DNA of 64,000 nt from an uncultured Eubacteriales bacterium (GCA_934526185.1 CAKTAA010000003.1:2950-66949); one strand, 5' to 3'. Counted from the stretch's first letter, positions 28,816-53,284 are shown. The notes: generated from the sequence alone by a model not told the origin. Made by a program: numbers and translations.

Positions 28816-29712
28816 TTATATTTCATACGCAGGATCAATTTCCTTTAATTCTCTGTACGTATCTATCTCCGCAATGTCATCGAAGGAGCATTCGCGCACA
28901 GCTACACGGTATTCCTCTATAAAGTATTCAAGAGGCACCTGATCCCAGTACCGTTCCTTGCCGCCCGGAGACTGGTACACCTGCTCGACATGCTTGGCGA
29001 GCTTAACGCCGTCCTCCTCCGTCCAATACGAGACGCCGAACATATGGTAGCAATCGGTTCCTCCGATAGACAAATTTGTAATCCAGCCGTTCCGGCACTG
29101 GAAGCACCAGTCGTCCGTCATCGCAACCGGAACGCCGAGATAATTCGAGGTATACTGATATTTTGTGATAAGCGATGGGTTGGACAACAGCAGATCCGCC
29201 TCCAGCAGGTAAGCATTCGGAAGCAGATACCGCGCGCACATGACCGATGAGATATTATTTGCCTCATTGTACGCGGGGTTCTCGACAAATTTGATGTTCG
29301 GATACCGGTATAAAAGCTGATCAAACTGCTCGGACAAATAGCCGCGGATAATATAAATTTCATCAATTCCCGCTGCTGTAACGGCATCAAGCAGTGTATC
29401 GATGATTCGCTTTCCGCGTACGCGTACAAGCGGTTTCGGCGTATTCAGCGTAATCGGCACAAGGCGCGAACCAAAGCCCGCCGCCACAAAGACAGCACGT
29501 TTTACGCGATACGGCTCCAGTGCCTCGAGCCCTTTTTCCGCCACGCCGCCGTTGACCAGATAACCAGCCTCCGTAAGCTGGTACAGCGTTTTGTTGATGA
29601 TTCCGAGAGACATTCCGGTATGATCCGCCATCTCTCTCTGCGTTGCACGCCCATTTTTCTCGATCCACGTAAGCAGATCGAATTGTTTTTTTGACAGCAT
29701 TTCCCGTTCCAT
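28816..29712 (-). CDS. Winged-HTH domain fused to LicC-like cytidylyltransferase (NTP_transf family)
   Basis: Start moved to ATG 29712. N-terminal LSKKQFDLLTWIEKNGRATQREMADHTGMSLGIINKTLYQLTEAGYL (MarR-like wHTH). Then AVFVAAGFGSRLVPITLNTPKPLVRVRGKRII...IIRGYLSEQF...NPAYNEANNISS, matching the LicC / phosphocholine-type cytidylyltransferase pattern. Confidence 0.75.
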   Translation of the reverse strand: MEREMLSKKQFDLLTWIEKNGRATQREMADHTGMSLGIINKTLYQLTEAGYLVNGGVAEKGLEALEPYRVKRAVFVAAGFGSRLVPITLNTPKPLVRVRGKRIIDTLLDAVTAAGIDEIYIIRGYLSEQFDQLLYRYPNIKFVENPAYNEANNISSVMCARYLLPNAYLLEADLLLSNPSLITKYQYTSNYLGVPVAMTDDWCFQCRNGWITNLSIGGTDCYHMFGVSYWTEEDGVKLAKHVEQVYQSPGGKERYWDQVPLEYFIEEYRVAVRECSFDDIAEIDTYRELKEIDPAYEI

Positions 29713-29879
29713 TTTATGACCATCCCTTTCCGGTAACCTTGATATTGTGACAGTGAATTTTATACACAAATTGCCTGACCTTTGTAAAGGTAAAGGCCTT
29801 CGTCTGAAGGATTCATTTTTCAGACATATCGGCTTCGGATTTTTATTTTCTGTGAGAGCATCGTACCCGGTGTTTTCAT

Positions 29880-31541
29880 TTACACCTTCTCCGTGCCGCG
29901 GCGCTGAAACGCAGGTTCCCGCCTTTCCGCCTTTCCGTCTTCCGACGATATGCACCGTTTTCCCGAAAGATATTTTTCCGCCGATTTTCTGACAAAATAG
30001 ACGCCTCCCTTTACAAGCAGGTTCACGAAAAAGATGAGGAACGAAACAAAGGCGGAAGATTCCAGCAGAAGCTGCGCCTCAAACTGGGTAATCATCAGCG
30101 AAAGCGGCTTGGTATACGCGTCGGACAGGAAGGACACGGCAGAAATCGTGATCATGGAATTGACAAAAAAATAGGTAAACATCTCAAGCAGCGTCGGTAC
30201 GGTCTGGGGCAGAATAACGTCCTTTATCATCCGCATGCGGCCGATGCCGAGCGTCTGTCCGACAGCTTCCAGGTTTCCGTTCAGCTTGCCCAGACTGTTG
30301 TACATCATCAGATACGGAGATGCAAAAAAATGAACCAGATTCACAAGAATCAGAATGGCGAGCGTACCGTATATAAAGCTGCCTTTAAAGAAAAAAACAT
30401 AGGAAAGCCCCAGGACAACACCCGGAACAGCCAGCGACAGCAGAGATACCAAATGCAGCGCTTTCACCGTCCTGCCCCCGGTTCTCGCCGTCAGATAAGC
30501 ACATAAAAACGCCATACAAATTCCGGCGACAGCTACGCCCAGACTGATGATAACGGAATTGGCAAGATAAGTGCCCGCTCCTTTTTCCAGCGCGTTACGG
30601 ATATGGCGGAAGCTGAGCGACAGATCAACCGGATACCTGTTCGCCAGTGTCAGCATGATAAAGGACAAGAGCGGTGTCAGGACACCCACGGAGGTAACGG
30701 TGCAGAGCGTATACGCAGTGCCTTTAGCCGCGCGGCCGCTTTTCAGATCAAAAGGTTTTGTCTGAAACTGACTGTTCTGCCGCTCACGGCAGAGGAGGTC
30801 AAAGGCAAACGCAATGATTGCCGGAATCAGCAGCACGGTACCAATTACCGTGCCCCTGCCGAAGTCCAGACGCCCGATAACCTCATGATACATCATCACG
30901 GGAAGCGTCATATACTTTCCGCCTATCATCAGCGGCACGCCGTAGTCGGTAAAAATCAGCGTAAAGGTCGCAAAAATTACACTGACAAGCGGCTTTTTGA
31001 GATACGGCAGCGTGATCTGCTGAAACCGTCGCACGCGCGGTATCCCCAGCACGGACGCGGCTTCATACGGTGTGCTGTCCTCATACTTGAGCACATCGCT
31101 CAGCATCAGGAAAGCCACCGGAAACGAATACATCACGCTACCGGCAACAATGCCCCAAAAGCCGTACAAACCGGTCGAAAGGCCGAACAGTCTGGTCAGT
31201 ATCCCGTTTGCGCCAAACAGAATAATCAGGCCCATGCCGTGAGAAATCGACGGCAGCAGCATCGGCAGCACCAGAATCGTTTTAAAAAACGCTTTGCCGC
31301 GTATGCTTGTCCGGGCAATACAGAACGCCAGCGCTGCGGCAAGCAGCAGAGAAATCAGCGTAGCCGTAAGGGACACCGTCACAGAGTTTAAAAGCGCCTT
31401 CTGAAATTTTTCACCTGAAAAAACTTTGCCGATATCCGTGTCGGCAAGACCGAAGAGCATTCTCCCAACAGGGAGGATGACGGAAAAGAGAAAGAAAACG
31501 GCGGCGGCGAGCTTCGCAGCCGAACATGTTCGACGTTTCAA
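29880..31541 (-). CDS. ABC transporter permease, fused double-domain (FbpB/ThiP/PhnU-type)
   Basis: 553 aa, about 12 predicted TM helices, two BPD_transp-like halves. Same operon as the ATPase and binding protein. Confidence 0.8.
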   Translation of the reverse strand: MKRRTCSAAKLAAAVFFLFSVILPVGRMLFGLADTDIGKVFSGEKFQKALLNSVTVSLTATLISLLLAAALAFCIARTSIRGKAFFKTILVLPMLLPSISHGMGLIILFGANGILTRLFGLSTGLYGFWGIVAGSVMYSFPVAFLMLSDVLKYEDSTPYEAASVLGIPRVRRFQQITLPYLKKPLVSVIFATFTLIFTDYGVPLMIGGKYMTLPVMMYHEVIGRLDFGRGTVIGTVLLIPAIIAFAFDLLCRERQNSQFQTKPFDLKSGRAAKGTAYTLCTVTSVGVLTPLLSFIMLTLANRYPVDLSLSFRHIRNALEKGAGTYLANSVIISLGVAVAGICMAFLCAYLTARTGGRTVKALHLVSLLSLAVPGVVLGLSYVFFFKGSFIYGTLAILILVNLVHFFASPYLMMYNSLGKLNGNLEAVGQTLGIGRMRMIKDVILPQTVPTLLEMFTYFFVNSMITISAVSFLSDAYTKPLSLMITQFEAQLLLESSAFVSFLIFFVNLLVKGGVYFVRKSAEKYLSGKRCISSEDGKAERREPAFQRRGTEKV

Positions 31542-31627
31542 GAGATTATCATACCTTTCTGTGTTCTGTCAGAGAGGAACCGAACAAATTGTTCGGTTCC
31601 TCTCCCATTTGCGCGCAAATGGCCTTT

Positions 31628-32389
31628 TTATGCCGTTACCGAAGTAAATCTTGCAAGGCTGTCAATTTTCATTCTGAGATTATCCAGTACAAATTCCTTT
31701 ACATAAGCATCCGCCGGCTGTCTCAGAATCTCTTCAGGCGTTCCTATCTGATGCATGCTCGCCTCTCCCATGACCATAATCCTGTCTGACATGGCGAACG
31801 CCTCCTCCTGATCATGGGTGATATAAATCATCGCCGCGCCGGTCTTTTTTTGAATATCCTTAAGCTCGCGCCGCAGCGACAGACGCGTAGCTACATCCAG
31901 AGCGCTCATCGGTTCGTCGAACAGAATAAGATCCGGCTGCAGCGCCAGCGTCCGTGCGATAGCCACCCGCTGCATCTGACCACCCGAAAGCTGTGCCGGA
32001 CGCTTGTTTTTGTGATCTGTCAGGCCGACCAGCTCCAGCATCGACAGAGCAGTCTGCCGGGACTGCGGTTTCATCTCCTTTTTCAGTCTGACCGCGTATT
32101 CAACATTTTTCAAAACGGTCATGTTCTCAAACAGTGCGTAATTCTGGAACACAATCCCCATGCCCCTCTTATCGGGCGGCTCACGGGTGATGTCCTTTTG
32201 ATCCTTCAGAATGGCGCCGCCCGTCGGCTCAAGCAAACCGATAATGATGCGCAGCAGCGTCGTCTTTCCGCAGCCGGAGGGCCCCAGGACAGAAAGAAAT
32301 TCCCCGCCCTTCACCTCAAAGCTTAACGGATTTAAAATAATTTTGCCGTCGATCTGTTTTTCGATATCGCGGATTATCAGTGATTCCAT
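31628..32389 (-). CDS. ABC transporter ATP-binding protein
   Basis: Walker A GPSGCGKTT, signature LSGGQMQRV, Walker B LILFDEPMSALD. Confidence 0.9.
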   Translation of the reverse strand: MESLIIRDIEKQIDGKIILNPLSFEVKGGEFLSVLGPSGCGKTTLLRIIIGLLEPTGGAILKDQKDITREPPDKRGMGIVFQNYALFENMTVLKNVEYAVRLKKEMKPQSRQTALSMLELVGLTDHKNKRPAQLSGGQMQRVAIARTLALQPDLILFDEPMSALDVATRLSLRRELKDIQKKTGAAMIYITHDQEEAFAMSDRIMVMGEASMHQIGTPEEILRQPADAYVKEFVLDNLRMKIDSLARFTSVTA

Positions 32390-33366
32390 CTGTCAAGCAG
32401 CCTGTCCTTCCGTTCCACATCCTTGATTCCCGTCATATCGCCGTACGGGATTTCCTTCGGAAAATTCTCCATGTTGATTTCCTGATCCTTATAAATTTGC
32501 TCCGGAGAGTACAGCTCCTTATCCTCCGGCGTCACCTCGTTCACAAGAAACTGAAAGACCTCGACAACTTGCTCCTCTGTCTGGCGCCCCTCTATCAGAG
32601 CGCTGGAATAGGTGGTATGCGGCGCCCCCTCCTCAAAGAAACGAATGTCGATATCCGTTCCGTTGTTTATCGCCGTAACAGCCTGAAACGTCATGCCGAG
32701 ACCAATCAGAGCTTCACCGTTTATCAGCTCCTGTACAGGCCCGGATCCGGAGGATGTAAACATTTTGATATTTTCCGCCAGCTTGTCGAAATAGGCGAAA
32801 GCCTCGTCCTCTCCCCATTCGTTTATCAGGTTGAGCAGGAATATATAACCGGTGCCGGAGGAGGCGGGATTCGGCATTGAAATTTTTCCCTTGTATTCCG
32901 GCTTCAGCAAATCCTCGTAGCTTTCCGGCACAGCAAGTCCGGCGTCGGTCAGGCCCTTGGTATTGAGCAGAACACCGCCGCTCAGACGGCACCACGGAAC
33001 ATATCTGTGACTTTCAGGTACAAGCTCCTCCACATATTTATCAAACGAAACGATGCCGTCGAGCGGGCAGATCGTATCACCCAGCTTTTCCAAATAAGTG
33101 GATTCCAGCTCCAGTATAATGTCGCAGTCAGTATCCTTTCCCTCCGAAAGCAGCTTTGCGGATAGCTCTCCTGTGGATTTGTATTCCACCTTGATATCCA
33201 AATCCGGAAATTCTTCTTTCAGCCGCTTGCGCACATATTCGTTCCGAAAATCCTCGGAGGTGGAATAAATCATGATCTGATCCTTGTTTTTTGAGCATCC
33301 GAACAAAAGCGGCAGACAAAACAGAACGCATGCCGCTGCAGCAAGGTATTTCCATATGCATTTCAT
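32377..33366 (-). CDS. ABC transporter substrate-binding lipoprotein (Fbp/AEP-type extracellular solute-binding family)
   Basis: Start moved to MKCIWKY (ATG 33366). Lipobox LLFGCS. 13-nt overlap with the ATPase gene. SGTGY and general fold-family pattern of iron/2-aminoethylphosphonate-type binding proteins (tentative specificity). Confidence 0.75.
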   Translation of the reverse strand: MKCIWKYLAAAACVLFCLPLLFGCSKNKDQIMIYSTSEDFRNEYVRKRLKEEFPDLDIKVEYKSTGELSAKLLSEGKDTDCDIILELESTYLEKLGDTICPLDGIVSFDKYVEELVPESHRYVPWCRLSGGVLLNTKGLTDAGLAVPESYEDLLKPEYKGKISMPNPASSGTGYIFLLNLINEWGEDEAFAYFDKLAENIKMFTSSGSGPVQELINGEALIGLGMTFQAVTAINNGTDIDIRFFEEGAPHTTYSSALIEGRQTEEQVVEVFQFLVNEVTPEDKELYSPEQIYKDQEINMENFPKEIPYGDMTGIKDVERKDRLLDRWNH

Positions 33367-33594
33367 TTTTATAACCATTCCTTTCTTTTGCAAAAATGTC
33401 TTTTGCGCTGATGCGGATCTGCGCCTCACTTTATTTAGAAGCTTGTAAATGGATCGAAAACCGCTTCTTGAAGCATGGTACAGACGGGCGTTACGAATAC
33501 TGCCGCTCCTCATGACTCACTTTAACAATGAAGATGGAAAAAGTTTCCTTACAATTTGAGTGTTTGATAACAATCAGGCAAGCATTCATTTAAA

Positions 33595-34204: not shown

Positions 34205-36046
34205 ATGAACAATCAGCATCCCCAGATTCCCTCGCAGACAAACGAAGCTCCCGTTTCTGAGTCTCCGGCAGAAAACAAAAAGAAGCATAAAACGCCGGAA
34301 GAAAATAAATTCATAAAGAAATGGAAAGCCCTTATACGCGAAAAACGTTCGTTTCGCTTTCGCCTTGCACTCTCCGCTTCCGCGGCGCTTGCATTTGCGT
34401 ATACGGTGCTGGTATTCGGTCCGTACGAAATTTATATAAAAAATATGGACTACTGCACCTTCTCCTTCTACGATCTCGTGCTTCCAATGGCGCTTACAGG
34501 ACTGGCTGCCTTTGCCGCGCTGACGCTGCTGCTGCTTGTATTCCGCGGCAAGCTTTTCACGGGCGCCGTATCCCTTGTTTTTGCTGTGACAATTGCATCA
34601 TATCTTCAGGCAAACTTTATAGGCAGCGATTTCGGTTCCCTTGACGGTACCACCATTGCATGGCAAAGCTATACGCTGCCGATGCTGTTCAACGCACTGA
34701 TATGGGGACTTCTTCTGCTCCTCCCCTTTGCCGTTGCCTATTTCAGCAAAAAAACCTGGGGCCGCGCCGTTATCTTCGTTTCACTTTTGCTTGTCGCCAT
34801 GCAGAGCGCCGGCCTTGTAGAGCTGCTGTTGAAAAACGACCTGACAAATATTTCAAAGGACGGATATCTGTCCCGCGAGACCATATTCGAAGTCTCGCCG
34901 GAAAACAATGTGGTTGTCTTTCTTTTGGATCGCTTTGATCAGCTCTATGCTGATGAACAGCTCGAGAAAAATCCCGATTTCTATGAAAAATTCTCCGGAT
35001 TTACCTTTTACAGGAACACAACGGGCAGTTATTCGCGCACGTTCCCGTCCGTTGCTTATTTTCTGACAGGCATTCCCTGCGACTATACCATTCCGAACAG
35101 CGATTATTTCCGAAAGGCCTGGGAGGAAACCTCTTTTCTTAGTGACATCCGTAAGGCAGGCTATCTTTCGAAAATTTATACGGAAATCAATTATGTCATC
35201 GGCGATATCGATTACGCACGCGAGGAAATTGACAACATCGGGGACAAGCCCCGCACGGTTAACGTGAAACGAATGCTTCAGTCCATGCTGAATCTTTCGG
35301 CATACCGATGCTGCCCTACCGCCATGCAGCCCTTTTTCCGCATGTATACCGGAGAGCTGCAGGACGTTGCCCAGCTTGAGGACGAAAATCTTTACGCATC
35401 CGATATCTACGGAACAGACGATGTCCGTTTTTTCAAAGACCTTCGGGAAAAAGGCGTCACCATAAACAATGACAGCAAGGGTTCCTTCATTTTCTATCAC
35501 ATGCAGGGCTCGCACGATCCCTACATCATGGACGAATACGGCAACCGCATCACCGGTGCGGAAACGACGATGTACCAGCAGACAAAGGGGAATCTCAACA
35601 TCATCGTGGAATATATCGAAAATTTAAAGAATCTGGGACTGTATGACGATACTACAATCATAGTCACCGCAGACCACGGCTGGACCGGCACTATGGAGCG
35701 TCTGGACAAGCCGCGTCTGATTTCCCTTTTTGTCAAGCCGAAGAATGCAGACATCACAAAGCCGCTCGCTGTGTCCGAAGCGCCCGTGTCTCAGGACAAC
35801 ATCCGCCCTACAGTTCTCCGCGCGCTCGGCATTGACAGCACCGCCTACGGTCCTGCCATTGAGGATATTGCGGAAGGAGACGACGTGGTCAGATACTTCT
35901 ATATGAGCGGTTCCAACAAAATGCTGACCAACCGCGACACCAATCTTGTCACATATGAAATCCGGGGAGACGCAAAGGTTTTTGACAATTGGAAGGTTCA
36001 CTCCGTCGTCCCCATGGAATATCCCTACTACGATGCGGGAAACTGA
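34205..36046 (+). CDS. LTA synthase / sulfatase-family membrane phosphotransferase
   Basis: 613 aa. About 5 N-terminal TM helices followed by an extracytoplasmic alkaline-phosphatase-superfamily domain (VVVFLLDRFD metal-site region, IIVTADHGW). Confidence 0.75.
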   Translation: MNNQHPQIPSQTNEAPVSESPAENKKKHKTPEENKFIKKWKALIREKRSFRFRLALSASAALAFAYTVLVFGPYEIYIKNMDYCTFSFYDLVLPMALTGLAAFAALTLLLLVFRGKLFTGAVSLVFAVTIASYLQANFIGSDFGSLDGTTIAWQSYTLPMLFNALIWGLLLLLPFAVAYFSKKTWGRAVIFVSLLLVAMQSAGLVELLLKNDLTNISKDGYLSRETIFEVSPENNVVVFLLDRFDQLYADEQLEKNPDFYEKFSGFTFYRNTTGSYSRTFPSVAYFLTGIPCDYTIPNSDYFRKAWEETSFLSDIRKAGYLSKIYTEINYVIGDIDYAREEIDNIGDKPRTVNVKRMLQSMLNLSAYRCCPTAMQPFFRMYTGELQDVAQLEDENLYASDIYGTDDVRFFKDLREKGVTINNDSKGSFIFYHMQGSHDPYIMDEYGNRITGAETTMYQQTKGNLNIIVEYIENLKNLGLYDDTTIIVTADHGWTGTMERLDKPRLISLFVKPKNADITKPLAVSEAPVSQDNIRPTVLRALGIDSTAYGPAIEDIAEGDDVVRYFYMSGSNKMLTNRDTNLVTYEIRGDAKVFDNWKVHSVVPMEYPYYDAGN

Positions 36047-36168: not shown

Positions 36169-36423
36169 ATGAAAACGATACGCAAGATTTTCACCTGCAT
36201 GTTTTTCCTTGTCTTTACCATGCTGTTCTTCGCCGTCAGCGCCGGCGCCTATATCGATCCTTCTGCCATGACCTATCTGGTTCAGATTATCGCAGGCGTC
36301 GTCATCGCAGCCGGAGCCGCTTTCGGCTTCTATTTCCGCAAAATCCGCCGCGCTATGAGCAAAAAGAAAAAAGCAGAGGAAGAGGACGACGAGGATGAGG
36401 ACGATGAGGACGAAATGAACTGA
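36169..36423 (+). CDS. Small membrane protein with poly-acidic C-terminal tail
   Basis: 84 aa. Signal-like helix, AYIDPSAMTYLVQIIAGVVIAAGAAFGFYF second helix, KKKK stop-transfer, then EEEDDEDEDDEDE. Lies between the LtaS-like and YidC-TagF genes. Confidence 0.45.
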   Translation: MKTIRKIFTCMFFLVFTMLFFAVSAGAYIDPSAMTYLVQIIAGVVIAAGAAFGFYFRKIRRAMSKKKKAEEEDDEDEDDEDEMN

Positions 36424-36569: not shown

Positions 36570-38735
36570 ATGGAATGGATTAACACAATCATCGGCACGC
36601 CGCTCGGATATCTGATGTGGCTCTGCTATCAGATCATCAGCGATTACGGAATTGCCATCATCATATTTACCCTGCTGACAAAAGTCGTCATGTTTCCCAT
36701 TTCCCTGCTGGTACAGAAAAATTCCATAAAACTGGTAAAAATGAAACCGGAGCTCGACGCGCTACGATATCAATACATCGACGACAAGGATGCATACTTC
36801 GACGCGCAGGCCGCGCTTTATAAGAAAGAAAAATACAGCCCGATGGCCGGTGTCTGGCCGCTGCTGCTTCAGCTTCCCATCATTTTCGGACTAATTGATG
36901 TGGTGTACAAACCGCTGAAGCATCTGCTGCACATGCCGTCCTCTACAATCGATGCGTTTGTGAGAAAGGCCGGCGAAATTCTCGGAACCTCAGATCTTGG
37001 CTCCTCTCCTCAGCTCAAAGTGGTGGAGCTGCTATCAAACGCTGACAATGTACCGCGCTTTTTAGAACTTCAGGACAGTCTCAGCGGTGTGGATGTCGCC
37101 TCGTCGATTTCCTCAATTCAAAGCGTACAGATGAACTTTTTCGGAATCAACCTGGCGGCGACGCCGAACCTGTCTCTTTCGCTGCTGCTTCTGATACCGA
37201 TTTTGGCCGGACTCTCGGCGCTTGTTATGTGCGTCATCCAAAACCGTATCAACGTTTTGCAGGTAGAACAGAACAAGCTGTCGCAATGGGGCATGACGCT
37301 CTTCATGATAGCCTTTTCCACCTATTTCGCCTTTCTCGTACCGGCTGGTGTAGGGCTGTACTGGATTTTCGGCAACCTATTCTCCATCGGTGTAATGTAC
37401 CTTGTGAATCTCATATACAATCCCAAAAAGTATATTGATTACAAGGCGCTGGCTGAAATAAAGCGGAAAACGGCGCAGGAAAAGGAAACCGCAAAACGGA
37501 ACAGGAAGCTCGCAAAAAAATATTACAAAGCCTTCTGCCGCCCGGAGAATCTTGAACATATGAAGCTGATGTTCTACGCGGAGGGCGCCGGCTACTACAA
37601 ATATTTTTCCAGCCTCATTGATCATATTCTGAAAAATTCCAAGCTGAAAATCCATTATGTGACCAGCGCTCCCGATGATCCCATCTTTGAATGCGGAGAG
37701 GAAAGAATCATCCCCTATTACGTCGATGAAACACGTCTGATATCCCTTATGATGAAGGTGGAGGCGGATATGGTGGTCATGACCACGCCTGATTTGGAAA
37801 AATACCACATCAAGCGGTCGCGCGTGCGCAAGGACGTAGAATATGTATACATAGATCACGGGTGTACCAGCATCAATCTGACATACAGAACAGGCGCCTT
37901 TGACTACTTCGACACGATTTTCGCGGTTAGTCAGGCACAAGCCGACGAGATCCGTGCAATTGAGAAGCTGCGCGGCACAAAAGAAAAACACATTGTTGAA
38001 TACGGCTACGGTCTGATCGATCAGATGATTGAATCCTACAAGGCGTGGCAAGCGGAGGAAGGCGCACAGCCATGTTCCCAAAAGCCGACAATCCTGATAG
38101 CGCCCTCCTGGCAGTATGACAACATCATGGACAGTTGTCTGGATGCACTTGTCGACGCTCTGCGGGATAAAGATTTCAGGATAATCATTCGTCCGCATCC
38201 GCAGTACATCCGGCGGTTTCCCATGAAAATGCAGGAGATCATCGGAAAATATCAGTCGTACTTCAGTGAGGATTTTATCATCCAGACGGATTTTTCATCC
38301 AATTCAACCGTATATACCGCAGACCTGCTGATTACGGACTGGTCCGCCATTTCCTATGAATTCAGCTTTACAACAAACAAGCCGACGCTGTTCATCAATA
38401 CGGAAATGAAAGTCGTCAACAAGGCATATAAAAAAATAAAAATTACACCGTTTGATATCACCGGACGCAGTCAGATCGGCCGTGCCATTGAAAAAAGTGA
38501 GGTATCCGGCATTGCAGAAGCAGCGGCTGAGCTGCTCGAAAATCAGGCGGCATGGGCGGAACAGATTGACGAATTAAAACGGTCGTATTTCTTCAACCTC
38601 GGGCACAGCGGCGAAGCCGGTGCTTCCTATATCATCGGCAAACTGACCAGAAAAAAGAAGAAAAAGAAAACGGCCGAGGTCCCCGCCGGAGATAAACCTG
38701 CAGACGGGGGAGCCACCCTGCCGGATAAAGAATAA
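36570..38735 (+). CDS. YidC/Oxa1-type insertase domain fused to CDP-glycerol glycerophosphotransferase (TagB/TagF family) domain
   Basis: Residues 1-~290: YGIAIIIFTLLTKVVMFPISLLVQKNSIKLVKMKPELDAL..LYKKEKYSPMAGVWPLLLQLPIIFGL is the YidC core pattern, with further TM helices. Residues ~330-700: TILIAPSWQ, IIIRPHPQ and LITDWSAISYEFSFTTNKPTLF are TagF-family motifs. Lys-rich tail. Confidence 0.7.
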   Translation: MEWINTIIGTPLGYLMWLCYQIISDYGIAIIIFTLLTKVVMFPISLLVQKNSIKLVKMKPELDALRYQYIDDKDAYFDAQAALYKKEKYSPMAGVWPLLLQLPIIFGLIDVVYKPLKHLLHMPSSTIDAFVRKAGEILGTSDLGSSPQLKVVELLSNADNVPRFLELQDSLSGVDVASSISSIQSVQMNFFGINLAATPNLSLSLLLLIPILAGLSALVMCVIQNRINVLQVEQNKLSQWGMTLFMIAFSTYFAFLVPAGVGLYWIFGNLFSIGVMYLVNLIYNPKKYIDYKALAEIKRKTAQEKETAKRNRKLAKKYYKAFCRPENLEHMKLMFYAEGAGYYKYFSSLIDHILKNSKLKIHYVTSAPDDPIFECGEERIIPYYVDETRLISLMMKVEADMVVMTTPDLEKYHIKRSRVRKDVEYVYIDHGCTSINLTYRTGAFDYFDTIFAVSQAQADEIRAIEKLRGTKEKHIVEYGYGLIDQMIESYKAWQAEEGAQPCSQKPTILIAPSWQYDNIMDSCLDALVDALRDKDFRIIIRPHPQYIRRFPMKMQEIIGKYQSYFSEDFIIQTDFSSNSTVYTADLLITDWSAISYEFSFTTNKPTLFINTEMKVVNKAYKKIKITPFDITGRSQIGRAIEKSEVSGIAEAAAELLENQAAWAEQIDELKRSYFFNLGHSGEAGASYIIGKLTRKKKKKKTAEVPAGDKPADGGATLPDKE

Positions 38736-38860: not shown

Positions 38861-39298
38861 TTATTGTTCATTATATCCCTTACGGTAAAGCGTAAGCCGG
38901 CAGGACGAACACAGTGTTTCTTTTACATACAGACAGCAATCCATACGGTACAGCGCCCCGTGGCTTGCGACAAGCACCGCAGTTGTGTCCGCCCTGCAGC
39001 CGGGCCTGACCTGCCTTCTGAATTCAGCGCCGTTTATATGGGTGAGCAGCGGCGTCGCACTCCCTGTTTTTTCTTCACGGAACAGACCGCACGCGCACTG
39101 CGCCATAATCTCGCACAGGATAACCCCGGGCACTATCGGATTTCCGGGGTAGTGTCCGTCAAAAAACCATTCGTCGCCACGAAAGGTATATGAGCCACAT
39201 ACCCTGTCCTCCGATTCCGGAATGAGCCGGTCCAGCAAAAGCATACTGCCCCTGTGCGGCAGGACATTCGTGATTTCGTCACCCTCCAGTATTTTCAT
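38861..39298 (-). CDS. FabZ/FabA-like hotdog-fold beta-hydroxyacyl-ACP dehydratase
   Basis: LPHRGSMLLLDRL ... FFDGHYPGNPIVPGVILCEIMAQ matches the FabZ active-site His region (FxGHFPxxPxxPGVL). Confidence 0.8.
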   Translation of the reverse strand: MKILEGDEITNVLPHRGSMLLLDRLIPESEDRVCGSYTFRGDEWFFDGHYPGNPIVPGVILCEIMAQCACGLFREEKTGSATPLLTHINGAEFRRQVRPGCRADTTAVLVASHGALYRMDCCLYVKETLCSSCRLTLYRKGYNEQ

Positions 39299-39341
39299 AG
39301 ATTCTCCGTATCTTTTTTCGCCTGCGCCGGTATTTGAAATG

Positions 39342-40034
39342 TTATCTCCCGTTCAGGGACAGCAATCCGTACAAATCTTTCAAATTTTCAATTATACAAA
39401 TCCCCCTCGGCTTTTTGGGGTAACTGCGTGCCGCAAGTACGGCATGCCATCCCATATCCTCTGCCGGCAGAATATCTTCGGTCAGCGAGTCCCCGACCAT
39501 CAGTGTGCGCCGGGAATCAAGCGCGTACTGAGCCGCTGCACGTTCAAAAAATGCTTTCTGCGGTTTGTTCACCTGAAGATCCTCCGACGAGCAGATAAAG
39601 TCAGGCACAAAGCCCTGACGCTGCACAGAATGAAGCAGAACGTCGTTATCTGCGTTGGTAAGCAGCCCCACTCTCCATTTTTTCCGCAGCACTGACAGGA
39701 CTTCATGCGCTTCTCGGAACGCCGGCGGTTCTGTAAACAGTTTTCCGAGCAGCGTACGGAAAGCCTCTTCGTCGCCTCTTACAGCAAAGGTCCGGCACGC
39801 ATGCAGATAGCTCTGTGCGAGAACCTCCGCTCCCCGCAGAAACGGCTTCCCCTCTGCCGTCAGCTTCAGACGGCGCTTGGCAAAGCAATAATAAAAAGCT
39901 TCCTCCGAATCCGCTTGTCCCCGTGCGGCCAGACGCTGCCCAAACCATTGACGAATCCTTACAAACGGCTCGCCCATATCCACCAGCGTTCCGTAATAAT
40001 CAAAGCATATGGTATCGACACTGAAACGCTTCAA
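39342..40034 (-). CDS. HAD-superfamily hydrolase (haloacid-dehalogenase-like subfamily)
   Basis: Motif I ICFDYYGTLVD, motif IV VGDSLTEDI. Apparent TTG start at 40034 with GGAGGA 7-8 nt upstream. Confidence 0.7.
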   Translation of the reverse strand: MKRFSVDTICFDYYGTLVDMGEPFVRIRQWFGQRLAARGQADSEEAFYYCFAKRRLKLTAEGKPFLRGAEVLAQSYLHACRTFAVRGDEEAFRTLLGKLFTEPPAFREAHEVLSVLRKKWRVGLLTNADNDVLLHSVQRQGFVPDFICSSEDLQVNKPQKAFFERAAAQYALDSRRTLMVGDSLTEDILPAEDMGWHAVLAARSYPKKPRGICIIENLKDLYGLLSLNGR

Positions 40035-40136
40035 CGCAGCTTCCTCCTGTTTTCTCGGTACTTCATTTCATAACGGCTGAACGCCTCTTATTCAGCCAGC
40101 CGCCGCATTTGCGGGCCGGGACATCCTGTTTTTTCC

Positions 40137-41462
40137 CTATATTCCTTCCGTTAAGCCGTTTTCTTTGAGTATCTGCCTGTTTAAGCTCTTTTCAGCGGCT
40201 GCCGCTCTGTCCAAAGCGTGAAAATACGTCATGACACGGCGGACGCGTTCAGGAGAATTGACACGGCGCAGAAGCGCCTCATACTTTTTTTCAAACGCTC
40301 CTTCCGGCAGTCCTCTCAGCTTATACAGCAGAGTGAAGCCGTCGTACAAATCCCAGTTGTCCGGCAGCTTTTCCGTCTCCTGCATCCTTCTGTAAAAGGC
40401 AGTGCCCGGAAACGGCGTAGCAACCGTAAGATTGGTACCATACATCGTGCTCTCCCATATGAACCGATATATGTCCTCAAAGGTCTGCTCCGTATCCCTC
40501 TCAAGGCCTAAAACGAAACTCCCGATAACACCGATGCGCTGGCGCTGTATCGCTTCCACAGCCTCATATCTCTCCTGTATTCTGCTTTTCTTAAAGCCAG
40601 ACGGATTGACTGTCCGCAGAGCCTCAGCGTCCAGACTCTCGAATCCGATAAGCAATTTTCGGCAGCCGGCGTCATACAGCCTGCTGAGAATATCTTTCCG
40701 CCTGTAAACCGATATATCTGTAAAGGCATACCAACGCACCCCCGTCCGGCTGAGAAGATCCAGGAGCGCATGGACGTCTCTGTGCCCTGTGAAAAAGTTG
40801 TCGTCGGTAAAAAAAACGAACGGATTTTTAAACAGACGGACAAGCTGCGCAAGCTCTTTTTCTGCCTGCTCCGGATCTTTTCTCCTCACCCTGCCCCCGT
40901 AAATTGCCGTGGAAAGGCAGAATTCGCAGCGGTGCGGACAGCCGCGGGACAACTGGATTGGCATACTGGAATAGGGATATTTTGCCGCCAGCTCATAGAG
41001 AGGGAGCGGCGATTCCGACAGAGGCGGTTTCTGTTCATCCGAATACAGCCGTTTGCCGCTGTCCGAAAGAAAATCGCCGATGCTTCGCTCCGCCTCCCCG
41101 ACAAATACGGCGTCCGCATGCTTCAGCGCTTCTTCCGGCAGCATAGTTGCGTGCGGCCCGCCCATTATGACACGCATTCCCCGCTTCTGAAACTGCTCGG
41201 CAAGTACATACGCCTTTCGAACCTGCGGCGTCGTCGGAGACAGGAATACGCAATCGTACCTTGTCTGCGGCAGGGTATCGTATTCTAAATCAACATAATC
41301 AACATCATATTTCGGCGCCAACAGTGCTCCGACTGTCAAAAGGCCGAGATGAGGCATGTTCCACAGCCGGCGCCGCGACCGGTATTCTGCCAGCTCCTCA
41401 AGGGATGCAGAGCGAGGATTGCGGCTTCTGTGTTCAAGCGAAAGCAGCAGGGCTTTGGGCAT
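40137..41462 (-). CDS. B12-binding-domain radical SAM protein (paralog 1)
   Basis: Start moved to MPKALLL (ATG 41462, GGAG upstream). N-terminal Rossmann-like block RVIMGGPHATMLPEEALKHADAVFVGEAE, cluster motif SRGCPHRCEFC (CxxxCxxC), FFTDDNFF. Confidence 0.85.
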   Translation of the reverse strand: MPKALLLSLEHRSRNPRSASLEELAEYRSRRRLWNMPHLGLLTVGALLAPKYDVDYVDLEYDTLPQTRYDCVFLSPTTPQVRKAYVLAEQFQKRGMRVIMGGPHATMLPEEALKHADAVFVGEAERSIGDFLSDSGKRLYSDEQKPPLSESPLPLYELAAKYPYSSMPIQLSRGCPHRCEFCLSTAIYGGRVRRKDPEQAEKELAQLVRLFKNPFVFFTDDNFFTGHRDVHALLDLLSRTGVRWYAFTDISVYRRKDILSRLYDAGCRKLLIGFESLDAEALRTVNPSGFKKSRIQERYEAVEAIQRQRIGVIGSFVLGLERDTEQTFEDIYRFIWESTMYGTNLTVATPFPGTAFYRRMQETEKLPDNWDLYDGFTLLYKLRGLPEGAFEKKYEALLRRVNSPERVRRVMTYFHALDRAAAAEKSLNRQILKENGLTEGI

Positions 41463-41551
41463 ATGATTTTGACTCCTTTCGCCGATAAAATGAAACTGCA
41501 CGGCGCAGCATACGACGCCATTCGATCTTCCGTCCTCCGGTCCGGCGTCGT

Positions 41552-42382
41552 TTATGACGGCGCGAAATCTGACGGTGCAAGACAGTAAACACAATGCGTC
41601 AGCGTATCGGTAAATACAATCCGTCCGTCTGAAAGCTGTGTGACAGCTCCTATATGCCCCGGACGTCCGAATCCCCATTCCCGGAATTTTCTGCGATCCA
41701 CCGCCGCTGCAATCTCCCCGCTTTCGACATTTAGGTGAAAAAGGGCGCGTGTCTCGCTGAACCAGATATTGCCCGCCGTGTCTGCCAACACGGATATGGG
41801 TTTGTGTCCGCAAAGCTCAAATGTATGTAACTTTCCCGTCTCCGTATGGTAACGCCGAATGCACGCGTACGCTGCGTCCGCAACATACAGGATACCCCGA
41901 TCATAAAAGATCCCGTACGGCTCCCCGCAGGGAATTCCGCGGAGAACCGTCATCTCCAGATTTCGATCTATTACACAAATTCTTTTGTTTAAAAAATCCG
42001 CTGCATAAAGGTTGTCTCCCTCTCCCCACGCAATACCTCCGGGGAGCCTCAGCGTCAGCCGACCGCGCGTCCGCAGCTTTTGCCAGCCAGCCGGCTTCTC
42101 ATAGACGTAAACCGCGTTTTCCTCCGCGTCGGTCACGGCAATACGCCCCTCCTTTACGCTGACGGCCAGAGGCTTCACAGGCTTGGCACAGCCTGCGCCG
42201 GCTCCAAGAGTCCGCAGGCTTCCGTCCGCCTCGCAAAAAGCGGCAACTCTGCCGTTTTCCATATCGCAGATATACAGCAGCTTTTCTCCGCTGTCATAGG
42301 CTGCGCCGGAGGGCCTTTGCAGCCCGCCTTCCGCGCCTATCCATCTTTCCGCTCTGTAAACGATTGACGTCGTGCCGTTCAT
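41552..42382 (-). CDS. NHL-repeat / six-bladed beta-propeller protein
   Basis: 276 aa with repeated ...LY(I/V)(A/C)D..N.R(V/I).. blades (LLYICDMENGRVAAF, LYAADFLNKRICVI, ILYVADAAYACIRRY). No signal peptide. Confidence 0.6.
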   Translation of the reverse strand: MNGTTSIVYRAERWIGAEGGLQRPSGAAYDSGEKLLYICDMENGRVAAFCEADGSLRTLGAGAGCAKPVKPLAVSVKEGRIAVTDAEENAVYVYEKPAGWQKLRTRGRLTLRLPGGIAWGEGDNLYAADFLNKRICVIDRNLEMTVLRGIPCGEPYGIFYDRGILYVADAAYACIRRYHTETGKLHTFELCGHKPISVLADTAGNIWFSETRALFHLNVESGEIAAAVDRRKFREWGFGRPGHIGAVTQLSDGRIVFTDTLTHCVYCLAPSDFAPS

Positions 42383-42633
42383 GCGTCGATATACCCTCGG
42401 ACAAGAGAGGCAAATGAGGCAATGTCGCGTATCTTATCCATATTCAAATCGCTGTCGTCGATTTCAATATCATACGCCTCTTCAATTTCTACAAGAATGG
42501 ACAGTGCCAAAATGGAGTCGATTCCAAGCGCCAGCAGCGGCGTGTCATAGGCAAGCGCCTCCGCCTTGCTCTTATCCTTCATTCGGGACGCAATGATCTG
42601 CTTTACCTTTTCCTCTACCGTGTTGTTCTGCAT
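42379..42633 (-). CDS. Acyl carrier protein
   Basis: 84 aa, acidic. Phosphopantetheine attachment motif LGIDSILALSILVEIEEAY. GAGAGGAG RBS. The stop overlaps the NHL gene start as ATGA. Confidence 0.8.
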   Translation of the reverse strand: MQNNTVEEKVKQIIASRMKDKSKAEALAYDTPLLALGIDSILALSILVEIEEAYDIEIDDSDLNMDKIRDIASFASLVRGYIDA

Positions 42634-42651
42634 ACAGCATGCTCCTCTCTT

Positions 42652-44241
42652 TTACGTATCTGCGCCGAATCGGCGGCAGTCCTGTGATTTTTCATGTATG
42701 GATTCCCCGCTGATTCCGGAAAGCGGAACGCGGAGCACACGGCTGTTGGCGCCGTCAAGAATCATCAGATTATTGCCGTTGATACACAGGGAGTTCGGGT
42801 TGGCCAGCCGTGTGTCTGATGCGTCTCCGGCCGGACTGTACCCTGCGCCAAGGCCGCCAGCCAGCGTGAAAATGCGGCGATCGCTCTTTCGGACAATTCT
42901 TACGCTGTGGCTGCCGGATTCCGAAATGTACAGATTTCCCGATGCATCCGTACATACTGCCGACGGCCGATTCAGTACAGCACACAATGCATCTCCTCCG
43001 TCGCCGCGTCCTCCGCTCCCTCCTCCGGCAGCAGTCCGGATTTTTCCGGTACAAAGATTTACCGCACGGATGCGATGATTGAGATAATCCGCTATGTACA
43101 GCACCTCCGCCCGAGAATCGATGCATATGCCGTAGATTTCCTGAAACGATGCCTCGGCGGCAGCGCCGCCGTCACCCGAAAATCCAAAGCGCCCGCTGCC
43201 TGCAAAGGTCTCAATGATGCCCTCTGCTGAAATACGACGCACGACATTATTTGCTATATCATTGATATACAGATTTCCGTGTTTGTCAGAGGCCACGCCT
43301 CCGGGCTTGTTCAGAGATGCACACGCGGCCGGTCCGCCGTCTCCGCCGAACCCCGCCTTTCCGGTTCCGCAAACAATGTGCACCCGTCTCACGCTTCCTG
43401 TCCTTCCGATATTTTCCAGCATGACAAGCTGATCGTTTCCGGTATCTGCGACAAACAGGCGATTTTCGATTGCATGCAGTGCCGTAGGCTTGTTCAGGCG
43501 CCCGCTTTCCGCCCTGCCACAGCCACTTCCGCCAAAGACAGGAAAAACGCGGCCGCCGCGGAGCATGACAACGCGGTGATTGTTTTGATCCGCTATATAA
43601 ATGGCATCTGTCACAGGAGATGCGGCGACCGCCTGCGGCTCCCAGAAAAGCGCTGTTTCCGCCGCTCCCCGGGAGGAGCATCCGGCATGTCCCCAAGCTC
43701 CGGCCTCATGGATGAGAGGTAGCGACGGTTCCAGCAGCACCCGCCCCTTATCCGGCTCCGCCTCGCTGCTGTACGTCTGTACGCAATTTCTCCTCCTTGC
43801 TTTTGCCAGAAGCAGCGCAGTATAGGCTTTACCTATCGTTCTCTCGGCCCGGTCTCCGCTGCTGCTCTCCGCAATGCCGGCGCTGAAGGTCAGACGGATC
43901 TTTTCATATCCCTCGCCGCCGGATAAAAGGCCCGCAAAGAACCGTTCCTTTCTGAACGCCGCCAGCGTGCCGCGGGCCATGCTTTCCGCCGCAGCTTTGT
44001 CTTTTTTTCGGAAGATAATCAGAAATTCGTCCCCGCCCGGCTCGTACAGCAGAGCCTCATTTTCAAAGACAGAGCAGAAAAAAGCTGTTATCCGCCGCAT
44101 TACAGTTCTGCATACATCGGGCGGAAACTTTATGCAGTATCTGAGAAAAAAATCGACGTCAATAAAAAGCAAACTGTACGGCCCTGTTTCTGCCGCGAGA
44201 ACACGCTCCGCTTTCTGTCTCAATCTTTCAATGCTGATCAT
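42652..44241 (-). CDS. GGDEF domain fused to NHL-repeat beta-propeller (paralog 1)
   Basis: N-terminal ~165 aa: LLFIDVDFF ... EPGGDEFLIIF ... LLLAKARRRN. C-terminal ~350 aa: NHL blades (AIYIADQNNHRVVML, LFVADTGNDQLVML, LYINDIANNVVRRI, LYIADYLNHRIRAV, LYISESGSHSVRIV). Confidence 0.7.
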   Translation of the reverse strand: MISIERLRQKAERVLAAETGPYSLLFIDVDFFLRYCIKFPPDVCRTVMRRITAFFCSVFENEALLYEPGGDEFLIIFRKKDKAAAESMARGTLAAFRKERFFAGLLSGGEGYEKIRLTFSAGIAESSSGDRAERTIGKAYTALLLAKARRRNCVQTYSSEAEPDKGRVLLEPSLPLIHEAGAWGHAGCSSRGAAETALFWEPQAVAASPVTDAIYIADQNNHRVVMLRGGRVFPVFGGSGCGRAESGRLNKPTALHAIENRLFVADTGNDQLVMLENIGRTGSVRRVHIVCGTGKAGFGGDGGPAACASLNKPGGVASDKHGNLYINDIANNVVRRISAEGIIETFAGSGRFGFSGDGGAAAEASFQEIYGICIDSRAEVLYIADYLNHRIRAVNLCTGKIRTAAGGGSGGRGDGGDALCAVLNRPSAVCTDASGNLYISESGSHSVRIVRKSDRRIFTLAGGLGAGYSPAGDASDTRLANPNSLCINGNNLMILDGANSRVLRVPLSGISGESIHEKSQDCRRFGADT

Positions 44242-44275
44242 ACAGGATTTTCCTCCAAATAAAAACAGGCTGCCG

Positions 44276-45655: not shown

Positions 45656-45682
45656 AGAATTCCTCCAATCCATATCCTGGCT

Positions 45683-46345
45683 TTAGCAACCGACATACGG
45701 CGGCTTCTTTTCCGGGGAAAGAACTTTTTTTACCGTTCTTTCCGATAAAGAATAGTACCGAAGCAAAAGACGGGCTGTGACCGTCGACAGCATTTCAAAA
45801 TCCACAGCTCGGTTCAGCGTCACCGACTGAACATGCACAGCGTCGCTGAGAACGGTAAACAGAAGCGAAAGCGCTTCGCGTTCTCCCCGCGGCAGCTCCC
45901 GTACACCGGCGAGCACGAGCAGCTCCGCAAAGGAAGCCGAGTAGAATTGATACAGCTCACACAGTCTTTGCCGGACATAGGAATCCTCCCGATCCTTTAC
46001 CAGCTTCCACAAATCGATGTAGACGGAAAGAATCTCGGGATGCGTACCGGAGCCCAATACAAAACCGCGGGCCAGATGCGCAAGTCTTTCGGAAGGTTCC
46101 GCAGTTTTTTTCATTTCCGTCCGCAGCGCCTCCACCCAACGTACTCCGGCCGCCGCCATGGTATCCATCAGCAGCTCCTTGTCGCCTTCCGGAAAAAGTT
46201 CTGCGAGAAGGTCGGAGCTCAGGCACGCTGCCCGCGAAAGATTTCCGAGTGTCAGACCGTCCGTTCCCCGCTCTCTCAGTATCTGCAATGCTATACGGGT
46301 TATTTTCTGTTTTCTGCTGTCCATCCGCCTCATAAAAGAATCCAT
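45683..46345 (-). CDS. TetR/AcrR-family transcriptional regulator
   Basis: N-terminal HTH ITRIALQILRERGTDGLTLGNLSRAACLSSDLLAELFP, with a helical C-terminal ligand-binding-type domain. ~220 aa. Confidence 0.7.
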   Translation of the reverse strand: MDSFMRRMDSRKQKITRIALQILRERGTDGLTLGNLSRAACLSSDLLAELFPEGDKELLMDTMAAAGVRWVEALRTEMKKTAEPSERLAHLARGFVLGSGTHPEILSVYIDLWKLVKDREDSYVRQRLCELYQFYSASFAELLVLAGVRELPRGEREALSLLFTVLSDAVHVQSVTLNRAVDFEMLSTVTARLLLRYYSLSERTVKKVLSPEKKPPYVGC

Positions 46346-46429
46346 ACCTATGCAAAGACCTCCTTTTTGTTAACCGGGCGTACTTGAAAATGCCTGTTTT
46401 TTAATATCCCGGACAAACTGCCCCCAAAA

Positions 46430-48903: not shown

Positions 48904-48978
48904 GCATCTATCCTTTCCGCCATCCCCGCAGAACAGCATGTGAATACAGTCAGGCACTTCATCATTCGGCATGTCCTC

Positions 48979-49734: not shown

Positions 49735-49987
49735 AGCTTTCGCTTTGCGAAAGCTTCCTTTCCTGAGGAATCGGGACATGCTTGGCGGTTCAAATTCGCC
49801 AAACGCTTGTGAGAGTTTTATATAATCAAGCTTCGTGTTCTTCACTTTTTAAGGAGCAGTATTCCGTCATACGGCGTCATGAAAACCGGACGCCGCCGGA
49901 TACTGTTTTACCGATTTTTCAAACGGACGGACAACCGTTCCGGATGGTACTGACGCCTCAGATTCCGCAGAATCTTCACCGTATCCG

Positions 49988-53104: not shown

Positions 53105-53284
53105 AACAGTCCTCTTTCTCCGGTTTCTCCGGCATTTTTTCCCGGTTGTATGTATGCAGCGTTTTGATCGTCCGGCAAACATCCAAGGCGGATAATTTTT
53201 GAAGCTTGTCTGTCCGAGCTTTTGCAGAAACGGCAGCTCTTTTTACAGCAGCAATTTATGCCCGGCTTTCTGCGATTTGAGCTT

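Follow-up and report, generated by a model that had tools for sequence, protein, structure and literature searches.

Within a 64,000-nucleotide stretch of DNA from an uncultured Eubacteriales bacterium (GCA_934526185.1 CAKTAA010000003.1:2950-66949; hereafter the window, with positions counted from its first letter), one gene (36570..38735, plus strand, starting with ATG and encoding 721 aa plus stop) joins a paralogue of the membrane protein insertase YidC, through a basic linker, to a TagF-like transferase. The fusion is confirmed as a real and widespread protein of gut bacteria, and it lies in a conserved cassette with genes for an LtaS-like sulfatase-domain enzyme (SULF), a small procoat-like protein (SMALL) and usually a signal peptidase I (S26). 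Its parts come from known superfamilies (YidC/Oxa1, TagF-like GT-B, LtaS-like, signal peptidase I, LicC/PntC), and their combination matches no described system. We give even credence to the reading that the fusion is the core of a LicD-independent, multi-protein machine that would decorate the envelope with a small zwitterionic head group of the phosphono or phospho type, which, judging from the sequences, is probably 2-aminoethylphosphonate (AEP) or phosphocholine.

A YidC insertase and a TagF-like enzyme in one reading frame

As the first-pass annotation of this DNA had claimed, the frame is single and continuous: one 721-aa open reading frame (ORF) occupies the plus strand, with no internal stop (ORF listing and sequence inspection) and a GGA-rich ribosome-binding stretch 5′ of the ATG, and every peptide quoted in that annotation is found in it. 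The first 290 residues (36570..37439), said there to carry a YidC core, are YidC-like above curated cut-offs in Pfam 60KD_IMP (aa 26-280, E 4.6e-35, 121.4 bits against a cut-off of 35) as well as TIGR03592 yidC_oxa1_cterm (110.7 bits against 84.3), and have the corresponding helices in an AlphaFold2 (AF2) model. They are followed by the linker (aa 291-330, 37440..37559), which is predicted to form one long cytoplasmic helix and is as rich in Lys and Arg as had been noted (15 of the 46 residues counted at aa 285-330); by the TagF-like GT-B phosphotransferase domain (aa 331-697, 37560..38660), identified by Pfam Glyphos_transf (aa 451-614, E 7.9e-11, 41.9 bits against a cut-off of 22.1), Foldseek and motifs; and by a Lys-rich C-terminal tail (aa 698-721, 38661..38732) of low confidence that differs between relatives. 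The AF2 model of the fusion (mean predicted local distance difference test (pLDDT) 82.6, predicted template modelling score (pTM) 0.65) comprises five transmembrane (TM) helices plus the C1 hairpin, a linker helix (aa 291-322) and a double-Rossmann C-domain of alternating β and α elements, with pLDDT below 50 at aa 696-721.

That a sequencing or assembly error merged two neighbouring genes has next to no likelihood. Among 5.8 billion proteins searched, at least 120 clusters of 690-750 aa match the query along its length at 60-100% identity, nearly all with both Pfam domains; a scan of GTDB with one genome per species found a relative encoded in 310 species representatives, and in the best 80 of these 310 all 80 match query residues 1 to ~700 in a single frame. 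This recurrence in independent clusters and in genomes from many studies and assemblers rules out a frameshift or assembly error at the junction, a point that the first-pass annotation had raised, and a related fusion is also present in the complete genome of a cultured isolate. Carriers are Clostridia and Coriobacteriia from human and animal guts. In a 50-sequence alignment the mean column identity is 67%, invariant residues occur in both halves, and both the length and the sequence of the linker are conserved. The database name for these proteins is only "membrane protein insertase YidC", although the architecture is listed.

Opposite the fusion gene, the window contains an antisense ORF of 273 aa (37377-38198, minus strand). 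In 11 of 85 related loci, antisense ORFs of 480-1035 aa, mostly longer than the fusion, displace it in naive longest-ORF calling (for example L083 4011-7118 and L038 4487-7417, both on the minus strand), probably as a codon-composition effect.

A conserved cassette around the fusion

The operon partners, absent from the first-pass annotation, carry most of the information on the fusion. In 81 non-redundant loci, tabulated with family hidden Markov models (HMMs) built from fetched loci, the order on one strand is SULF, SMALL, usually S26 and then the fusion. Adjacency was counted in the 71 loci with at least 3.5 kb upstream: SULF (~610 aa) adjoins in 66, SMALL (80-190 aa) in 70 and S26 in 53 (TIGR02227, 133 bits against 47).

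SULF of the window (34205..36046, plus strand, 613 aa) combines an N-terminal multi-TM part with an extracellular LtaS-like domain (Pfam Sulfatase, aa 235-543). Its closest solved relatives are eLtaS 2W5Q/2W5R, the LtaS ectodomains of S. aureus and Listeria (E 2e-8), and D242, T279, H432, H437, D490 and H491, which represent the metal ligands plus Thr, are invariant in 39 sequences; the Thr lies at or beside the nucleophile position, the alignment being one residue off in a low-confidence stretch. With 16.3 bits against a cut-off of 970 for the LtaS equivalog model NF053595, SULF is related to LtaS only distantly and is not its orthologue.

SMALL of the window (36169..36423, plus strand, 84 aa) has a signal peptide that ends in SAGA and is followed by YIDPSAMTY, one TM helix, and a basic and then acidic tail. 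At the cleavage site, -1 is Ala in 75 of 76 sequences and -3 is a small residue in 73 of 76, the mature N-terminus is YIDPSAMTY in 50 of 76, and the translocated segment contains a conserved acidic residue plus Ser/Thr. M13 procoat is the classic substrate of this kind, being YidC-dependent and processed by leader peptidase. Among the meanings first offered for the fusion, a coupling to membrane-protein insertion thus gains support from the adjoining procoat-like protein and signal peptidase I.

In three loci (L021 5915-6577, L023 222-821 and L001 8935-9519), SMALL reaches 190-220 aa through an extended acidic C-terminal tail of low complexity; the N-termini called in L021 and L023 leave too little room for a normal signal peptide, and the start is possibly mis-called.

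The transferase half belongs to a phosphonate-linked subfamily

The assignment of the C-domain to the TagB/TagF family is borne out by the Glyphos_transf score and by Foldseek, which against the PDB places TagF (3L7I-M) at ranks 1-6 (E 3.5e-9 to 2.2e-8, target-normalised TM-score 0.57-0.60), followed by S. aureus TarL (8VA1) and the capsule multienzymes 8QOY and 8A0C amid generic GT-B enzymes. Identity to TagF is ~15%, and the Pfam match is partial, covering profile positions 137-297 of 367 (~11-292 in the relatives P0122 and P0144). TarL residues 345-490 can be aligned with a C-domain profile through the motifs AP(S/T)(W/F), (R/K)xHP and D(W/Y)S..E(F/Y)A, so that APSW of the fusion pairs with APTF, RPHP with KMHP and LITDWSgi..EyA with LISDYSSLIYEYA; the nucleotide-binding lobe is therefore TagF/TarL-like. 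Invariant in this half are H430 (codon 37857-37859), APSW514, R541-P-H543-P (H543 codon 38196-38198) and D590-W-S592, and R541, H543 and W514 are invariant in stand-alone relatives too. H430, in a D-H-G motif, is retained in 50 fusions and 25 stand-alone relatives, down to 28-37% identity, which would make it a natural candidate for the catalytic base; its counterpart in known enzymes would be TagF H444/TarL H300, the catalytic His of their N-lobe. Since the C-terminus of YidC is cytoplasmic, so is the enzyme domain, a location compatible with nucleotide-activated donors.

These similarities, together with the LtaS ectodomains as the closest solved relatives of SULF, are what speaks for a conventional teichoic-acid enzyme, in which the C-domain would be a CDP-glycerol or CDP-ribitol primase or polymerase (TagF/TagB/TarL) and the LtaS-like gene would make ordinary lipoteichoic acid (LTA). 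Gene company points elsewhere, and we consider this explanation very unlikely. No genes for CDP-glycerol or CDP-ribitol (tagD, tarIJ), TagO/A/B or TagGH occur among the conserved neighbours in the 81 loci or in the window, the tag/tar and LicD searches having covered neighbourhoods and the window, not whole genomes; the nucleotidyltransferases that are linked belong to the LicC family and come with a choline kinase and BCCT transporter or with an AEP-type importer; and stand-alone members of the subfamily lie in phosphonate clusters. The partial Pfam match, the low identity to TagF and the very low LtaS score of SULF point the same way. The label of glycerophosphotransferase, or teichoic-acid-type polymerase, given in the first-pass annotation is thus probably wrong.

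The TagF half belongs instead to a subfamily whose stand-alone members adjoin phosphonate-biosynthesis rather than CDP-glycerol genes. The closest of these stand-alone relatives are ~390 aa long, 30-37% identical and found in Chloroflexota, Bipolaricaulota and environmental samples. At L086 (7001-12907) the neighbours are a PEP-mutase/nucleotidyltransferase fusion, a phosphonopyruvate-decarboxylase-type TPP enzyme, a second nucleotidyltransferase and an Fe-ADH, with sulfatase-domain genes near, and at L087 (7001-14885) a HIT protein, cytidylyltransferases, a PhnD-type phosphonate-binding ABC system and a PEP-mutase fusion. L089 adjoins a 572-aa sulfatase-domain protein, L090 a 538-aa protein without Pfam match and then a GT2 glycosyltransferase, and L091 a LicC-like nucleotidyltransferase and an MFS transporter. 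A SMALL homologue (an ORF of 74-79 aa; HMM E 2e-7 to 2e-11) with the same junction of AYA followed by Y(I/L/M)(D/E)P lies directly upstream in four of these five loci. Because SMALL homologues and phosphonate genes accompany the stand-alone loci, the ancient unit is SMALL plus the TagF-like enzyme (plus a sulfatase-type enzyme), linked to CMP-activated phosphonates, and Clostridia and Coriobacteriia later gained the YidC fusion and the dedicated signal peptidase. The idea that SMALL is a mere client specific to the fused YidC was rejected, as SMALL also accompanies stand-alone TagF-like genes. The TagF-like genes of L086 and L087, both on Chloroflexota-type contigs, are candidates for the missing phosphonyl transferase that acts after PntC in phosphonate tailoring (Rice 2019, PMC6697681).

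Two putative supply modules with matching cytidylyltransferases

Two alternative gene sets accompany the cassettes, and they co-occur in none of the 81 loci. Module A, present in 24 loci, lacks a kinase; in the window it lies on the divergent strand (28816-33513) and encodes a solute-binding protein (32377..33513, minus strand), an ABC ATPase (31628..32389, minus strand) and a fused double permease (29880..31541, minus strand), whose closest matches are PhnS2, PhnT2 and PhnU2, respectively, all below cut-off, followed by a winged helix-turn-helix (wHTH) protein that includes a LicC/PntC-family cytidylyltransferase (28816..29955, minus strand; Pfam HTH_24, NTP_transferase). Module B, present in 21 loci, consists of a BCCT transporter, a choline-kinase-type kinase, either alone or fused to a wHTH-nucleotidyltransferase, and a 236-aa nucleotidyltransferase. 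Among the 38 loci with long flanks, 31 have a LicC-like gene within 10 kb of the fusion.

Compared with homologues, two of the window ORFs are over-extended at the 5′ end, that of the cytidylyltransferase by ~80 codons (likely start MEREML... near 29712) and that of the solute-binding protein by ~45 codons (likely start MVIKMKC...).

For both nucleotidyltransferase types the best solved relative is S. pneumoniae LicC 1JYK (E 1.6e-27 for the window enzyme and 4.9e-34), the CTP:phosphocholine cytidylyltransferase of that species. The match of the window enzyme spans the whole catalytic domain, and its second match is 6PD1 (Tde-PntC), the AEP-specific PntC of Treponema denticola (PMC6697681). LicC and PntC share their logic, selectivity being steric, and LicC D105/D192 correspond to Tde-PntC E104/E196 (Rice et al. 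2019, PMC6697681). The position of LicC D105 is Glu in 23 of 23 module-A loci, the window included, and Asp in 20 of 22 module-B loci, a correlation confounded by phylogeny. As AEP needs no phosphorylation, a kinase-free importer with a PntC-like Glu fits a phosphonate such as AEP; BCCT, kinase and a LicC-like Asp fit choline. Only four positions of the fusion segregate with module type, all in the TagF half (Y427F, three residues from H430, I450L, K560R and Y673H), and none in the YidC half; this is what head-group recognition by the C-domain should produce, and it hints weakly at such recognition.

The YidC half is a specialised paralogue with an intact groove

The N-domain is built of an interface helix, TM1, the C1 hairpin, TM2, a ~72-aa extracellular insert (aa ~115-190) and TM3-TM5 (AF2 helices 26-68, 73-86, 92-113, 205-227, 236-256 and 259-282; pLDDT mostly 80-93), and the only PDB sequences matched by the fusion-family profile are YidC chains. 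K38 (codon 36681-36683), in the TM1 groove, aligns in the family profile with R366 of E. coli YidC, the cation of the hydrophilic groove. The groove Arg, whose conservation had been proposed as a check, is thus retained as a charge, Lys being present in 50 of 50 fusions, and replaced as a residue; this is a trait of the lineage, whose housekeeping YidCs have Lys in 38 of 60 and Arg in 22 of 60. T34, Q49, K50, P97, G214, S250, Y264, W265 and N269, all at housekeeping-conserved positions, are likewise found in 50 of 50 fusions.

Stand-alone Oscillospiraceae YidCs (340-390 aa) are 36-40% identical to the N-domain and also contain the TM2-TM3 segment, an insertion relative to the Pfam model. Two of these paralogues (P0244, P0502) sit in the canonical dnaA-rpmH-rnpA-yidD-yidC-jag-mnmE locus and are therefore housekeeping insertases. 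The fusion was not seen in the rnpA-(yidD)-yidC-jag locus among relatives with annotated neighbours, which marks it as a specialised paralogue and not the housekeeping gene; by sequence, its N-domain and the lineage's housekeeping YidC are diverged paralogues. Two features considered as adaptations to fusion, Lys in place of Arg and the TM2-TM3 insert, were rejected, both being found in the housekeeping YidCs of the lineage.

At the Oscillospiraceae housekeeping yidC loci L092 (5001-6056) and L093 (5001-6122), the extracellular insert between TM2 and TM3 is ~65 aa long. The lineage's housekeeping YidCs have a ~90-aa, highly charged C-terminal tail that ends in ..RLAEARR..AEKYGEEY.

Positions invariant only in the fusions cluster at the cytoplasmic face, namely in the C1 hairpin (aa 58-85, including the acidic D71/D72/D74/D78 cluster), at the end of TM3 and in the C2 loop (aa 221-245, QN..NVLQ.EQ) and at the end of TM5. 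In ordinary YidC this face, made of the C1 hairpin, C2 loop and TM5 end, is where ribosomes dock; in the fusion the enzyme domain stands in the place of the ribosome-binding C-terminal tail of the housekeeping protein, and it would pack against the fusion-specific face.

These features bear on the proposal that the YidC-derived module passively tethers a peripheral TagF-type enzyme and has lost its insertase function. Enzymes of the TagF family work on lipid-linked acceptors at the membrane, the C-domain has stand-alone relatives that lack YidC, and the replacement of the ribosome-binding tail by the enzyme would suit a tether. Such an anchor would not need complete conservation of the groove cation and groove lining at 60% overall identity, however, and it leaves unexplained why a signal peptidase I and a procoat-like substrate are co-encoded, the peptidase being sometimes fused. 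We judge the mere anchor, another of the meanings first suggested, to be improbable.

Natural fusions reproduce the cassette in single polypeptides

Among the best 150 matches in a search of 1.84 billion cluster representatives, 15 proteins are 1170-1550 aa long. Pfam analysis of a sample revealed the orders YidC-TagF-Sulfatase (P0121, P0139), Sulfatase-YidC-TagF (P0138, P0144, P0155) and S26-YidC-TagF (P0122), so that in Coriobacteriia and others YidC-TagF has the LtaS-like enzyme attached at one end or the other. Every order agrees with topology, YidC having its N-terminus outside and its C-terminus inside, the catalytic domains of S26 and LtaS-type enzymes lying outside and the N-terminus of LtaS-type enzymes lying inside. 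Complete genomes of the cultured species Raoultibacter timonensis (Eggerthellaceae, Actinomycetota) contain a 1361-aa form, which has no other name than "YidC/Oxa1 family membrane protein insertase", and a 1386-aa form occurs in Coriobacteriales OH1046. Because triple fusions occur in these organisms, the system spans two phyla and a metagenome artefact is ruled out.

A possible head-group transfer machine

In the scheme that we infer, donor, acceptor and every catalytic step included, gene content suggests that the AEP-type ABC importer of the window would bring a head-group precursor into the cell, where the LicC/PntC-family enzyme would use CTP to activate it, the most likely product being CMP-AEP; in sister cassettes BCCT, choline kinase and LicC would give CDP-choline instead. 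The cytoplasmic TagF-like domain would then take the head group off the nucleotide donor and place it on an acceptor embedded in the membrane, standing in for LicD. The N-domain would act as a working YidC paralogue, most likely inserting the procoat-like SMALL, which signal peptidase I would then cut between A and YIDPS, and YidC-driven assembly would hold the transferase, SMALL and the LtaS-like enzyme together as a single complex. Outside the cell, by analogy with LtaS, EptA and PptA, the LtaS-like partner would pass the head group to a final acceptor, which may be a wall or membrane polymer or a protein.

A bolder version, possible but doubtful in our estimate and akin to the last of the meanings first suggested, a groove repurposed for lipid-linked substrates, has synthesis coupled to translocation: the fused YidC groove would itself move the charged head group across the membrane, as a scramblase or loop translocase in the role of LtaA, TacF or Wzx-type flippases, after the TagF-like domain had loaded a carrier at the inner leaflet, be it a lipid or the D-P-S loop in the precursor of SMALL, and the LtaS-like enzyme would use the loaded carrier outside. 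This would account for a cassette in which activation and transfer are cytoplasmic and the LtaS-type enzyme is extracellular, yet no flippase gene is conserved. Characterised LtaS/EptA/PptA-type enzymes take their group from lipid donors of the outer face. A case in point is PptA, with phosphatidylcholine as donor (PMC10434233). In vitro, glycerophospholipids are scrambled by E. coli YidC, and simulations show the same for other Oxa1-family insertases (PMC11047089). Also consistent with groove transport are the perfect conservation of the groove, the direct fusion of the LtaS-like enzyme to either side of YidC-TagF, and the acidic residue and Ser/Thr of the SMALL translocated segment, as in YidC substrates. 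An ordinary insertase, on the other hand, would show equal groove conservation, the tight linkage of signal peptidase I argues for a protein as cargo, the stand-alone systems have no dedicated YidC, and scrambling by YidC is so far an activity seen in vitro.

Several observations weigh against the LicD-independent machine built around the fusion as proposed above. Stand-alone TagF-like genes have neither a fused nor an adjacent YidC, so YidC is not intrinsically needed for the chemistry. Similarly, S26 is absent from the window, in which SULF and SMALL are present, and from 18 of the 71 loci, so a dedicated signal peptidase is not obligatory. As for the equivalence of H430 with the TagF/TarL histidine, the C-domain profile matched the C-lobe only and gave no alignment to the N-lobe of TagF or TarL, a profile of the N-lobe alone had no matches to either, and a single-sequence search with P0122 returned only YidC and signal-peptidase matches and no TagF/TarL N-lobe alignment. 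Searched with a YidC-domain HMM, the window and ~1.4 Mb of fetched flanks yielded no second YidC-like ORF. The NCBIfam models that best match the importer, named "putative 2-aminoethylphosphonate ABC transporter", are matched below cut-off throughout, and the phylogenetic confounding applies to all correlations with module type. Finally, the absence of LicD concerns the neighbour families conserved in at least 6 loci, among which there was none beyond those described above, and the window, and is of neighbourhood scope only.

Comparison with known systems

TagF, TarL and TagB (S. epidermidis TagF 3L7I, S. aureus TarL 8VA1) share with the fusion a GT-B fold, the C-lobe motifs and a cytoplasmic location at the membrane surface. 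The Foldseek E-value of 4e-9 is set against ~15% identity and a match to only half of the Pfam profile, and, whereas TagF and TarL bind the membrane peripherally, the fused enzyme is covalently joined to a polytopic insertase. Its genes keep company with LicC, choline kinase, an AEP-type importer or phosphonate genes and not with CDP-alditol genes, so that nothing marks the protein as a TagF-type polymerase.

With Gram-positive YidC paralogues (B. subtilis SpoIIIJ/YidC2/MisCB, B. halodurans YidC2 3WO6, S. mutans YidC1/2) the N-domain has in common the five-TM core, the C1 hairpin and the TM1 groove cation, as well as a division into a housekeeping and a specialised copy told apart mainly by the part after TM5. 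It differs from them in bearing a 400-aa enzyme rather than a ribosome-binding tail, in lacking a lipoprotein signal, in having Lys for Arg and the ~72-aa TM2-TM3 insert, both common to its own housekeeping paralogue, and in being operonic with a signal peptidase and an LtaS-like enzyme.

The Lic-1 (LicB/LicA/LicC/LicD) and PntC tailoring systems show the same uptake, phosphorylation where a kinase is present, and LicC/PntC-type cytidylylation of a surface-bound head group, module B containing choline-kinase, LicC-like and choline-transporter-family genes and module A the PntC-like Glu. No LicD-type gene is found among conserved neighbours or in the window, so this is not a Lic-1 system; the TagF-like domain occupies that logical position, and YidC, SMALL, signal peptidase I and the LtaS-like enzyme are extra components. 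Another difference is that the system scavenges the precursor, and PEP mutase is absent from the clostridial cassettes.

A logic of synthesis inside, crossing of the membrane and transfer outside also underlies the LTA triad of YpfP (a cytoplasmic GT-B enzyme), LtaA (a flippase) and LtaS, and likewise Neisseria PptA; the enzyme acting outside is again a member of the alkaline-phosphatase/sulfatase superfamily with a multi-TM domain at its N-terminus, and S. aureus LtaS is cleaved by signal peptidase. In the fusion system the middle component would be a YidC paralogue and not an MFS flippase, and the head group probably AEP or phosphocholine and not glycerol-phosphate. SMALL, for its part, recalls the paradigm of M13 procoat or Pf3 coat, YidC and leader peptidase: it has the procoat layout, with a cleavable signal peptide that follows the -3/-1 rule, a very short acidic translocated segment, a TM helix and a basic cytoplasmic stretch, and is encoded beside YidC and signal peptidase I. 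It differs in being a cellular operon protein that TagF-like enzymes of several phyla have as a partner, and it would depend on the fused YidC by analogy.

In the full-text literature searched, outside of which lie subscription-only papers, neither the fusion nor a TagF-like AEP or phosphocholine transferase is described. A 2023 survey of phosphocholine genes recognised only LicD- and PptA-type transferases (PMC10434233), and "multiple sulfatases" have been reported within putative phosphonolipid clusters of Selenomonas (PMC8942020).

Other features of the window

Downstream of the fusion, an extended run of same-strand genes of unusual composition (38861-54253, minus strand), possibly a lipid or metabolite pathway, encodes a FabA-like dehydratase, a HAD hydrolase, two B12-binding radical-SAM enzymes, an alpha/beta hydrolase, an enoyl-CoA hydratase, three NHL-repeat proteins (two with GGDEF-like N-termini) and three proteins of the 2-hydroxyacyl-CoA-dehydratase (HGD-D) type; it is not conserved beside the fusion in relatives. 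Elsewhere, four consecutive ORFs of 286, 437, 449 and 450 aa without a Pfam match at E<1e-5 (3539-8976, minus strand) adjoin a gene for an SLH + CBM9 cell-wall protein (1828-3156, minus strand).

Implications

Phosphocholine and AEP on the bacterial surface influence how the host recognises the cell, by way of C-reactive protein, natural antibodies and mimicry. We know of no transferase for phosphocholine systems that lack LicD, and the TagF-like subfamily is a concrete candidate for the missing transferase both there and in phosphonate systems. At least 310 species carry the family, in which the database name hides an enzyme and a whole pathway. In addition to providing a testable physiological case, cultured species included, for the lipid scrambling that insertases perform in vitro, the fusion comes with SMALL and a dedicated signal peptidase, which together form a small cellular model of the YidC-only insertion route. 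If synthesis and translocation are indeed coupled, the system would be the first physiological, dedicated export of a non-protein cargo, or of a post-translationally loaded protein shuttle, through the groove of an Oxa1-family protein, and it would represent LicD-independent decoration of the cell surface with phosphocholine or AEP in abundant gut Clostridia and Coriobacteriia.

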